This document shows, piece by piece, positions 30,458 to 38,139 of a DNA stretch of 64,000 bases. Position 1 is the first letter of the stretch. The number at the start of each line of letters is the position of its first letter. The stretch comes from Chlamydiota bacterium (GTDB taxonomy: Bacteria; Chlamydiota; Chlamydiia; Chlamydiales; SM23-39), in assembly GCA_039179045.1 (NCBI GenBank), contig JBCDEZ010000001.1, positions 2,967-66,966 on the forward strand, given 5' to 3'. A model generated the notes under the pieces. That model saw only the letters and a list, made by a program, of their open reading frames with translations. It did no database searches and was not told the origin of the DNA. Made by a program: the position numbers and the translations under genes.

Positions 30458-30886
30458 GACCCTTCGCTGTAAAAAATCTAAGGAGCTTCTGATGCAAAAA
30501 TGCCATTGGAAAAGGGTTAACCGAGAATTGGTAAAAAAGGAAGTCTCACTTTTTTATAGACAAAGCCTGCTTCTCTCAGCCAGTAAAGGGGAAGAAAATG
30601 CGAGGTAGGTTTAAGCTCTACCACGCACCCTCTTATTCAAATCCTGCTCCTTCTTAAAATCCAGTATCGACTCACCTACCTTGCGGAGGGGGTGCGGAAT
30701 GTGGGTACTATCCTTTGGTAGGGGTATCGGCCATGGATACCCTACATCTACCAGGATAAAAAACCATCACCCAATATTTTGCCTGAAAAGAGCCAATTCT
30801 TGATGATTGAAAACCCAAAATTCAGGCAAGTAGATTCCTTCTTTATTCTTCTGTCTAACCCAATTCTTCTAATTGAAGTGAGATAT
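30458..30886 (+). mobile_element. internally deleted, frame-broken IS5-family-like element, the apparent parent type of the MITEs at 35513 and 36710
   Basis: Left end gaccc..ctgtaaaaaatctaaggagcttctgATG aligns with the MITE left arm. Pseudo-ORF pieces in three frames read MQKCHWKRVNRELVKKEVSLFY, RGRFKLY, IQILLLLKIQYRLTYLAEGV, YPTSTRIK and FLMIENPKFR. These parallel the IS903-type motifs NW..YN..L.kRGsl..W, RGr...YSd.AIq..L.LK.vf.LplR.tEG, PDy(s/t)TlSRR and vvDSTGlK. The last roughly 45 bp (ttattcttctgtctaacccaattcttctaattgaagtgagata) match the MITE right arm. Confidence 0.6.
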
Positions 30887-35512: not shown

Positions 35513-35668
35513 TATACCCACCTTGACTGAAGAATTGTGTAAGGAAATTCTCCAGAAACACAAAGGAGGGGTTTTGGGAGAGTTTATCCCACCCAATTCC
35601 AAGGTTTTCCACTCGCTTTTTATCTCTATTCTGCTGTCTAGCCCAATTCTTCAACTGAAATGGGTATA
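35513..35668 (+). mobile_element. MITE copy 1 (about 152 bp plus flanking TA)
   Basis: Bounded by TA|TACCCA...TGGGTA|TA inside the palindromic target GATC-TA-GATC. It aligns over its length with the reverse complement of 36710-36888, with one internal indel of about 20 bp. Confidence 0.8.
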
Positions 35669-35776
35669 GATCTCTTGTATACCTGTTTTCCATAGCGATC
35701 GCATATAAAAATTTGACTTAAGGTAGGTCCAAGTGGCGATGATTTTTTCTCTAATGTTTGATGAGGAGAGAAAACA

Positions 35777-37077
35777 ATGGCACTAATAGAGGAATGGAAG
35801 AAAATTTGCGGAAGAATTGAAGATCCAAGAATCGCACGCAAGTAAGAAGCATCCCCTAATGTCGGTTTTGTTTGTGATACTTTGTTCTTGCTTAGCAGGA
35901 ATCGACAATTGGGTGGGTATGGAAGATTATTGCAGAACAAACTTTGCTTTTTTCTGTAAGTATTTCGATCTATCTTCAGGAGTACCTTCTCATGACACGC
36001 TAGCTCGCGTATATGAGACTCATTCATCCTGAGCGTTTTCTCGAGTGTTTTTGCGAGTTCACACATCTCCTATCGAAACAGTTACGAGGAGTAGTAGCTA
36101 TTGATGGGAAAACAGCGAGAAAAAGTAACTCACTAGATCAATCTAAAAATCCTCTTCACCTTGTATCTGCCTGGTCTAGCGCCCATCACTTGGTGCTAGC
36201 CCAGGTAAAAACAGAAGACAAATCCAATGAAATCAAAGCGATTCCTAAGCTACTGGAAATGCTTGATCTCTCAGGGGAAGTAGTCACAATCGACGCCATG
36301 GGGTGCCAGCGTGAAATTGCGGAAAAAATCTTAGAAAAAGATGCAGACTACGTACTCTCTTTGAAAGGCAATCAAAGATCTTTGCACAAAGATCTTCACT
36401 ACTTGTTTCAAGGGTTTGAAGAAAAGAGCTGGGAAGATTTTATCGGTACAAGATACGAATCTTGTGAAAAAGACCATGGCCGGATTGTTACCCGCAAGGT
36501 GTGGGCAACAGAGTGTCTAGGAGATCTTACGCAGCAACATCAGTGGCCTGGTTTACATTCTGCAATTTTTCTTGAATCTACTCGAGAAATCAAAGGGAAG
36601 AAAACCACAGAAAGACGGCTTTACATTTCTTCTCTACCCCCAGATGCAGAGCAGGCGTGCGGGTGTATCCGGTCTGACTGGGGTATAGAAAACCAATTGC
36701 ATTGGGTATTATACCCAATCCAATTGAAGGATTGGGTTAGACAGAAGAATAGAGACGAAATAGATTCGTAATCCGTTTCTTCAGTTCGTGGAAAAGCTAT
36801 GGGCTAGGTGGGGGTAAACTCTCCGAAAACTCCACCTTTTTGTTTCTGGAAAATTTCCTTACACAACTCTTCAGTCAAGATGGGTATAGATACCATCTTC
36901 AATGAAGACAGATCACAGATTTCCAAAGACCACTCTCCTGAAAACATGTCTCTAGCTAGAAAATGGGCCTTGAATATTCTTCGCGCAGTACAGGGCAAGA
37001 AAAGTCTAAAACGGATTCAAAACTATTTTTATATGAACGGAAACAACCTAGAAGAAGTTTTTTGCAAGGAAATGTAA
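35777..37077 (+). pseudogene. ISAs1-family (H-repeat-associated type) DDE transposase, disrupted
   Basis: Pieces read MALIEEWKKICGRIEDPRIARK*, then a frame shift to KKHPLMSVLFVILCSCLAGIDNW..GVPSHDTLARVY, then a frame shift to VAIDGKTARKS..KSNEIKAIPKLLEMLDLSGEVVTIDAMGCQREIAEKI..DYVLSLKGNQ..DWGIENQLHWVL. A MITE follows, then DTIFNEDRSQISKDHSPENMSLARKWALNIL. All match E. coli YhhI-type motifs. Confidence 0.9.
36710..36888 (-). mobile_element. MITE copy 2 (about 175 bp plus flanking TA), inserted in the ISAs1 transposase gene
   Basis: TA|TACCCAATCC...GATGGGTA|TA. Deleting 36712-36888 joins tgg gta tta | gat acc atc, restoring LHWVLDTIFNED. Confidence 0.9.
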
Positions 37078-37167
37078 ATGCGATCCCCCTGTTTCTCTAC
37101 CTCTTATGCGTTGAAAAATAACGTTTTTTCTTTGATAATGTGGGATAAGATCTGTTGGAGGTTACAG

Positions 37168-38139
37168 ATGAGGTTCCCCAAAATTTTCTTATTAGGCACC
37201 GGCCTACTTTTCCTATCCATTCTTGTTTTGTCTCTTGGTAAAAAAAAGAAACAAGGAAATTTTGAAAATGTAACCAAGCTGCACAGGCCTCTTATCGAGA
37301 TCTCTCTTCCAGAAGATAGGAGTTCGAGTGCCTGTAGAGAAACGGAAGAAAACCTGCTTATTGAAAATGATCTACCCGAAGCAAACTTAGTAGACCGGCT
37401 TTTCAAAACAGACAACTCGAAACTCCCTATTGTCGAGACGATTACCTACACAAGCCAAGTACCTTGGCTCGTAGGGCGCTGCGCTTGGATTGCCGATTAT
37501 GCGTCTTACTACGAGACATCCCGCTACTTCATAGCACGTAGCTTACAGCAGCAAGATTGCTACTCGTGGCATGGGGTAGCACCTGGAGATCAGTTCAATG
37601 TACTTTCCCTGAAAAAAGCGATCGAATTTCATCTCATTTTGGATCTTTCCCGCTCTAGGATCTGGTTTTACTATTTAGACCTCGAAAAGAACGCGCGCAC
37701 TTTGCTCAAAACCTACCAAGCAGGAATAAGACCTACGGCGCAACAAGAAAGAGCCGAGTGCCTGATTGAACCGGGCATATACCGCGTAGGAGAGGAGGTC
37801 GCTGTGTATCAGCCAGGTATTATGGGTTATGCCCTTGAAGAAAAAGTGGAAATGGTGCGCGTATTTGGCACCAGAAGGCTCCCTTGCAAACCTGTAGAAC
37901 AACGGGGAGAGCAAGCAGGGCATGCTTTTGCTATACAAGGTCTACCCCAACTAGAAGGCTCTCAAAGAGACTGTGGTGAAGACGCGAATATGCTCGCAAA
38001 AGGGCGTTCAGGTAAAGCGGTACAAATGGCACGCCAAGACATAGAAGAACTATTTGCAATTGTCATCACAAAGCCTACTTTTGTACACGTTGTGTCTGAT
38101 TTTTACGAGGCAAAACTACCCGGCACGGAGGATCTTTAG
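37168..38139 (+). CDS. YkuD (L,D-transpeptidase)-fold protein with an N-terminal membrane anchor; catalytic residues apparently substituted
   Basis: GGAGG lies 7 nt upstream of ATG 37168. MRFPKIFLLGTGLLFLSILVLSL forms the anchor. The C-terminal HLILDLSRSRIWFYY..IEPGIYRV..HAFAIQG..GRSGKAVQMARQDIEELF..PTFVHVV parallels the YkuD consensus i.vdls.q.l.vy..TP.G.f.i..giaiHG..ShGCiRm...d..eLy...t.V.i. Confidence 0.55.
   Translation: MRFPKIFLLGTGLLFLSILVLSLGKKKKQGNFENVTKLHRPLIEISLPEDRSSSACRETEENLLIENDLPEANLVDRLFKTDNSKLPIVETITYTSQVPWLVGRCAWIADYASYYETSRYFIARSLQQQDCYSWHGVAPGDQFNVLSLKKAIEFHLILDLSRSRIWFYYLDLEKNARTLLKTYQAGIRPTAQQERAECLIEPGIYRVGEEVAVYQPGIMGYALEEKVEMVRVFGTRRLPCKPVEQRGEQAGHAFAIQGLPQLEGSQRDCGEDANMLAKGRSGKAVQMARQDIEELFAIVITKPTFVHVVSDFYEAKLPGTEDL

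Follow-up and report, generated by a model that had tools for sequence, protein, structure and literature searches.

A probable TA-inserted MITE within the transposase gene of a decayed ISAs1-family insertion sequence in a Chlamydiota bacterium

RUP of S. pneumoniae is a 107-bp element with terminal inverted repeats (TIRs), TA termini and no open reading frame (ORF), which inserts at TA and is mobilised in trans, an activity attributed to IS630-Spn1 (PMC2229807). RUP has been found inside the transposase genes of more than six families of insertion sequence (IS), which it inactivates (PMC2229807). A later study on the genome scale gave no support to a link between RUP and IS elements and put the individual cases down to non-functional DNA tolerating insertions (PMC3049150). 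The Correia (NEMIS) elements of Neisseria are 107–155 bp long, have TIRs of ~24 bp and TA termini, duplicate TA and occur as long and short variants; Correia insertions in transposase genes have been recorded, and the alignment of filled against empty sites defines these elements (PMC2229807). IS30 inserts either into near-palindromic hot spots or beside its own inverted repeats (IRs), producing tip-to-tip junctions and a 2-bp duplication (PMC9333248).

The locus described here lies in a window of 64 kb, by which we mean the whole stretch of Chlamydiota DNA that was analysed. It has the architecture of the RUP cases: a small TIR element at a TA target, with no ORF, sits in an IS transposase gene. 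RUP differs in having a known parent IS; the repeats in the window are 152–175 bp long and come from a Chlamydiota MAG. The likeness is architectural only. The same applies to the Correia elements, which belong to a different host phylum but whose length variants also differ by an internal segment, as the two full copies in the window do by 23 nt. The host IS is related to the ISAs1/H-repeat elements of E. coli (YhhI, YbfD, YdcC); its transposase shares the LHW.LD...NED motif with YhhI and matches NF033564, but the window copy is a pseudogene, and members of its subfamily have come to light in metagenomes and a Chlamydiota MAG only. The parts of the locus are as follows.

35691–37091, plus strand: degenerate ISAs1-family IS, 1401 bp filled and 1224 bp minus the MITE
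35778–37077, plus strand: ISAs1 transposase pseudogene in three frames, interrupted by the MITE; P0125 and P0126 represent its intact form (373 aa)
36710–36711, unstranded: left TA of the target-site duplication; empty sites read GGGT(A/G)T-TA-GATAC, with one TA
36712–36886, plus strand: MITE copy B, 175 bp, TACCC...GGGTA, 41% GC, stops in six of six frames
36712–36737, plus strand: left TIR of MITE copy B, ~26 nt, containing an 8-bp hairpin (CCCAATCC/GGATTGGG)
36861–36886, plus strand: right TIR of MITE copy B, ~26 nt
36887–36888, unstranded: right TA of the target-site duplication, from the same filled/empty comparison

The transposase gene is split between ORFs in different frames. ORF 36013–36771 proceeds to ...IENQLHWVL and then continues as YPIQLKDWVRQKNRDEIDS to a stop codon; ORF 36808–37077 carries DTIFNEDRSQISKDHSPEN. 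The span 36710–36888 comprises copy B and both TAs (179 bp), and the sequence across it reads cat tgg gta tta / TACCCAATCC...GATGGGTA / TA gat acc atc ttc aat gaa gac or, over a longer stretch, CAA TTG CAT TGG GTA TTA / TACCCAATCCAATTGAAGG ... CTCTTCAGTCAAGATGGGTA / TA GAT ACC ATC TTC AAT GAA GAC. The first-pass annotation had claimed that excision of the element together with one TA joins the two frames, and its coordinates and arithmetic are correct: removing 36712–36888 (177 bp, i.e. 175 bp plus one TA) fuses them into IENQLHWVLDTIFNEDRSQISKDHSPEN and GIENQLHWVLDTIFNEDRSQ, with the joint LHWVL/DTIFNEDRS.

Conceptual repair of the gene yielded a 373-aa protein, which we used for family searches. 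The repaired protein matches the NCBIfam model NF033564 ('ISAs1 family transposase') in one stretch covering positions 1–314 of 314 (E = 1.3e-113), and the Pfam domains DDE_Tnp_1_assoc and DDE_Tnp_1 (E = 8.7e-25 and 4.3e-18, respectively). Judged by its predicted product, the interrupted gene is that of an ISAs1-family transposase. His308, Leu311, Asp312, Glu317 and Asp318 are invariant in an alignment with 12 homologues (43–96% identity), and the MITE junction falls exactly between Leu311 and Asp312, so that excision rejoins two invariant residues and restores the ISAs1 motif, as had been proposed. The insertion point is seven codons past the IEN glutamate, in the LHW.LD..F.ED motif, and the last 62 residues of the protein are severed. 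The motif that the first-pass annotation had given for E. coli YhhI, LHWRLDVVMNEDD, proved accurate on MG1655 b3484: the sequence there is ENKLHWRLDVVMNEDDCKI, and over 364 residues YhhI has 37% identity with the intact relative P0126. P0125 and P0126, both 373 aa long, are in the same 90% protein cluster, and one of the intact transposases of this cluster is from a sister sequencing run. An alternative raised at the outset was that intact homologues naturally contain about 59 extra residues at this position. None was found: the match to the family model is continuous, no extra segment is present in the best 120 of thousands of homologues (292–402 aa), and 0 of the 12 aligned homologues have extra residues at the junction.

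Direct evidence for an insertion comes from DNA. A search for ISAs1 copies without the insertion, which the first-pass annotation had suggested, returned six uninterrupted copies in metagenome, ENA and Logan DNA with 93–97% nucleotide identity to the window IS: L001 (TARA metagenome), L011 (ENA) and L012 (from SRR22824333, a Logan run that is sister to the one reproducing the organism of the window) at ~97%, and L007, L008 and L009 at 93%. All six read CATTGGGT(A/G)T-TA-GATAC(C/T), with one TA at the predicted joint. The window reads TA-[175 bp]-TA at the same point and is the filled allele. Because the uninterrupted copies hold a single TA exactly where it was predicted, copy B is identified as a discrete insertion, and the comparison of filled and empty sites further shows that 2 bp (TA) were duplicated and that the ISAs1 element arrived first and the MITE later. 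Both the 2-bp duplication and this order of events had been deduced in the first pass from the window itself, and both stand. The neighbourhood is also represented in a Logan assembly of the same organism, which is 99.98% identical to the window up to 45 nt into the other full MITE copy (position 35557; see below) and matches again from 37063, where a second contig starts in the right end of the IS; copy B and its junctions are not spanned. A contig break 45 nt inside a MITE copy is as expected of a repeat.

By structural definition, the 175-bp element is a MITE, as the first-pass annotation had called it; the label is based on its TIRs, its small size, the stops in all six frames, a predicted hairpin fold and the two further copies, one full and one partial, that the window contains. 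The TIRs are imperfect: in an end-to-end alignment, the left end reads TACCCAATCCAATTGAAGGATTG and the reverse-complemented right end TACCCATCTTGACTGAAGAGTTG. The right TIR and the outer end of the other full copy agree in 14 of 15 positions. The predicted fold of copy B, in which the left-end hairpin is visible, is more stable than that of shuffled sequences (z = -3.4), and the GC content of the element (41%) compares with 47% for the window. Coding capacity is absent from the two full copies (175 and 152 bp), and no homologues of their translated frames were found. Rfam, run on the whole window, reported a tRNA at 194–267 only and no match in the MITE, and a scan for promoters and terminators between 35300 and 37300 gave a signal no higher than that of shuffled sequences.

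Searches of the 64-kb window with blastn and an nhmmer profile yielded two full copies and one partial copy, the two in addition to copy B being:

35515–35666, minus strand: MITE copy A, 152 bp, in the opposite orientation to copy B and flanked by TA (35513–35514 and 35667–35668)
30828–30882, minus strand: partial third MITE copy (C), left-end portion only, nhmmer E = 4.9e-7

Across aligned columns, copies A and B are 83.6% identical, and they differ by a 23-nt indel. Copy A has imperfect, ~26-nt TIRs, a predicted fold that is more stable than shuffled sequences (z = -2.9) and a perfectly palindromic target, GATC-TA-GATC. Its position is 22 bp beyond the left end of the IS and hence outside it, an observation that goes beyond the first-pass annotation. 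The left-end hairpin of copy B (36712–36737) recurs in copy A (35641–35666), with one compensatory change from C-G to T-A and one mismatch. Together, copies A and B form a 99-nt inverted repeat that brackets the 5' 1 kb of the IS. Partial copy C directly follows, on the 3' side, a gene for an rlmH-like SPOUT methyltransferase. A further break in the Logan contig of this organism is at 30676, beside a GC-rich palindrome, TAGGGGTATCGGCCATGGATACCCTAC (30676–30760), which may represent another repeat family. The genes nearby are housekeeping genes: lgt, ssb, pepA, a pseudouridine synthase gene, accA, an ABC transporter gene, tsaD, fabH and fabD. A mechanically called ORF of 353 aa (37078–38139) begins within the right end of the IS; an independent call places its start at ~37138 (333 aa), and the product has no Pfam match.

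Further copies of the MITE were sought beyond the window, in DNA collections that lack the source genome. Scans of genome, metagenome and viral contigs for patterns from the MITE core and ends gave chance matches only, and the sequences L003–L006 obtained in this way have no further similarity. A blastn search against plasmids returned nothing. Copies miscalled as protein were also looked for: the open frame of copy A gave no match, another open frame produced a single spurious match to a 1613-aa protein in an exhaustive HMMER search, and a query of concatenated stop-free segments from both copies returned nothing.

ISAs1 elements are ~1.2–1.3 kb long, have short terminal inverted repeats and duplicate 8–10 bp of target as direct repeats. 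We set the ends of the host IS where its similarity to the six uninterrupted copies starts and stops; the flanks diverge outside these points. With 1224 bp after subtraction of the MITE and with terminal IRs, the window copy has typical ISAs1 size and ends. Its left IR is mutated, reading CATAGCGATCGCAT as against CAGGGCGATCGCAT in intact copies, its right IR reads ATGCGATCCCCCTG, and the two are complementary at 14 of 19 positions. The flanking sequences, ACCTGTTTTC and TTTCTCTACC, contain a degenerate CCTGTTT(T)C-like repeat alone, and a clean duplication is absent. Near-invariant residues have been changed in the window copy, one example being RSDWGIEN in place of the RSHWGIEN found elsewhere. 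The reading frame is also broken twice upstream of the MITE, which, like the position of copy A, had escaped the first-pass annotation.

35840–35843, plus strand: frameshift 1, one extra base, IARK* in place of IARNKKHPL; shared with L001 only
36008–36012, plus strand: frameshift 2, one extra base, CGCGTATATGAG in place of CGTGT-CATGAG; shared with L011 only

Given the two upstream frameshifts (~35840 and ~36010), excision of the MITE brings the motif back without making the gene functional. The host IS is a dead element that was already decaying, and the MITE is one lesion among several; its insertion has no demonstrable role for the host. The frameshifts are distributed as a mosaic across the copies, L001 having the first only, L011 the second only, and L012 and L007 neither, which suggests either gene conversion between IS copies or chimeric consensus contigs in the metagenomes. 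The intact ISAs1 element L012 is carried on a circular unitig whose ends overlap by 30 nt (k-1), and there a 19-bp spacer separates the right IR from the left IR that comes next. This arrangement could represent IS copies in tandem or an IS circle produced by excision.

Another feature that the first-pass annotation had not described is the similarity of the target flanks to the ends of the MITE itself.

36694–36708, plus strand: left pseudo-end in ISAs1 coding DNA (Q L H W V), CAATTGCATTGGGTA, 14/15 matches to the reverse-complemented left end of the MITE
36893–36908, plus strand: right pseudo-end in ISAs1 coding DNA (T I F N E D), CCATCTTCAATGAAGA, 14/16 matches to the reverse-complemented right end of the MITE

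The two pseudo-ends are arranged tip-to-tip around the target TA, 5 bp apart. When both strands of the 64 kb were compared with four variants of the MITE end, the left pseudo-end was the sole 15-mer outside the MITE copies with more than 12 of 15 matches. Gapped local scoring of the flanks of 2,663 TA sites gave a summed score of 25 at the copy B target and a maximum of 18 elsewhere. Nothing comparable is seen at copy A, whose flanks score 4–5, and the mimicry thus concerns one of the two full copies. The pseudo-ends are also present in the ~97% identical empty copies L001, L011 and L012; since these carry the same coding sequence, the mimicry belongs to the target and did not arise through the insertion. 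Conversion of the left end of copy B toward the flank was considered and judged unlikely, as the CAATT variant is found in partial copy C too and the A-type end already fits the flank at 12 of 15 positions.

Taken as a whole, our account is that a transposase acting in trans inserted a 175-bp non-autonomous cut-and-paste MITE into a TA within the transposase gene of a resident, otherwise decayed ISAs1-family IS; the TA was duplicated, and the element landed between the invariant Leu and Asp of the C-terminal LHW.LD..F.ED motif. The mobiliser was presumably of the IS630/Tc1-mariner type, and the likeness of the flanks to the ends may have aided recruitment. We consider this account very probably correct. 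Members of the IS630 family insert at NTAN, ideally CTAG, and duplicate the TA. Two sites are available here, GATC-TA-GATC for copy A (C-TA-G) and GTAT-TA-GATA for copy B (T-TA-G), and it is the TA duplication together with the CTAG and TTAG targets that suggests an IS630/Tc1-mariner-type enzyme as the most likely mobiliser, with an IS30-type enzyme as the rival. A transposase able to move the MITE was not seen in a Pfam scan of 10 of the ~60 window ORFs of at least 150 aa, which returned housekeeping functions only. Because no cognate transposase was found, the assignment to a family (IS630, IS30 or the IS5/IS427 group) rests on the two targets. The ISAs1 element itself was rejected as mobiliser: its IRs (CAGGGCGATCGCAT) are unrelated to the TIRs of the MITE, and its family duplicates 8–10 bp.

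The MITE could instead have been derived from, and moved by, an IS30-family transposase, whose targeting of IRs would explain why the copy B target looks like two abutted ends. The duplication of 2 bp fits this proposal, as do the tip-to-tip flanks, with 14/15 and 14/16 matches at the top-scoring site in the window; targeting of IRs with 2-bp duplications is documented for IS30 (PMC9333248). Both duplications in the window are TA within YTAG, which is the signature of IS630, copy A lacks any end mimicry, and no IS30-like gene was found among the 10 window ORFs scanned. IS30 duplications are not confined to TA. There is also a difference in the nature of the target, which for IS30 is a genuine IS30 end and at this locus is coding DNA of an unrelated IS, at one site. 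An IS30-type parent is a real rival, because the dual specificity of IS30 is the closest documented behaviour to the end mimicry, but on balance we think it unlikely. Much less probable is a PATE of the IS200/IS605 type that moved as single-stranded DNA without duplication and for which the left subterminal hairpin would be the recognition structure. The conserved 8-bp hairpin, with its compensatory change from C-G to T-A between copies A and B, would suit such an element. PATEs have no TIRs, make no duplication and insert on the 3' side of one short motif and in one orientation; the ends of the present element are mutually inverted over ~26 nt, TA is found on each side of both copies and once in the empty site, and the two orientations occur within 1.2 kb.

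Two further possibilities concern the extent and the reality of the insertion rather than its mechanism. The near-identical outer ends of copies A and B and their 99-nt inverted repeat (84% complementary) raise the question of whether both copies and the intervening DNA (35515–36886) moved as one unit. This is ruled out by the alignment with the empty sites, in which only copy B need be removed: its deletion alone gives a continuous IS that is colinear with the six empty copies, the segment between the copies consists of the left part of the IS and 22 bp of flank, and the copies are just 84% identical. We regard such a composite move as extremely improbable. The chance that the transposase of this lineage naturally has such an insertion or domain, or that the extra sequence is an assembly artefact, seems negligible; no support for either was found. 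Stops in the transposase frame within the segment, the continuity of the family model and of all homologues at this point, and the second copy at an unrelated site refute it, and the independent Logan assembly reproduces the neighbourhood at 99.98% identity, albeit without spanning copy B or its junctions.

Returning to the trans-mobilised MITE, its arrival in an ISAs1 element has a neutral explanation, namely the tolerance of non-functional DNA for insertions proposed for RUP (PMC3049150), which fits a decayed IS such as the window copy. A more specific idea is that the MITE or its transposase was guided by end mimicry to the ISAs1 pseudo-ends around the TA, which fall in the best-conserved part of the transposase gene, much as IS30 is guided to its own IRs, which would make the MITE a sequence-directed hyperparasite. 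The IS30 analogy consists of an element-end-like target and a 2-bp duplication. As the mimicry is positive at one site out of two, we keep end-mimic targeting as a hypothesis, and a rather doubtful one.

With RUP and Correia as precedents for MITEs landing in IS genes, the case in the window is clean but ordinary. Its main value is for annotation: ORFs 36013–36771 and 36808–37077 should be read as the halves of one ISAs1 pseudogene and not as genes. The locus is also a textbook demonstration of filled and empty sites, from which the relative order of mobile-element events can be read. No paper on MITEs in Chlamydiae came up in a full-text search, and the 152–175-bp repeats appear to be a MITE family not described before, in an uncultured Chlamydiota lineage. 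If end-mimic targeting is true, this MITE would be a hyperparasite of ISAs1 elements, taking them as safe haven and vehicle while inactivating them. Should the mimicry recur at other copies, the targeting of IRs known from IS30 and IS911 would be extended to a TA-duplicating MITE, and the old and disputed idea that MITEs prefer IS elements would gain a mechanistic basis.
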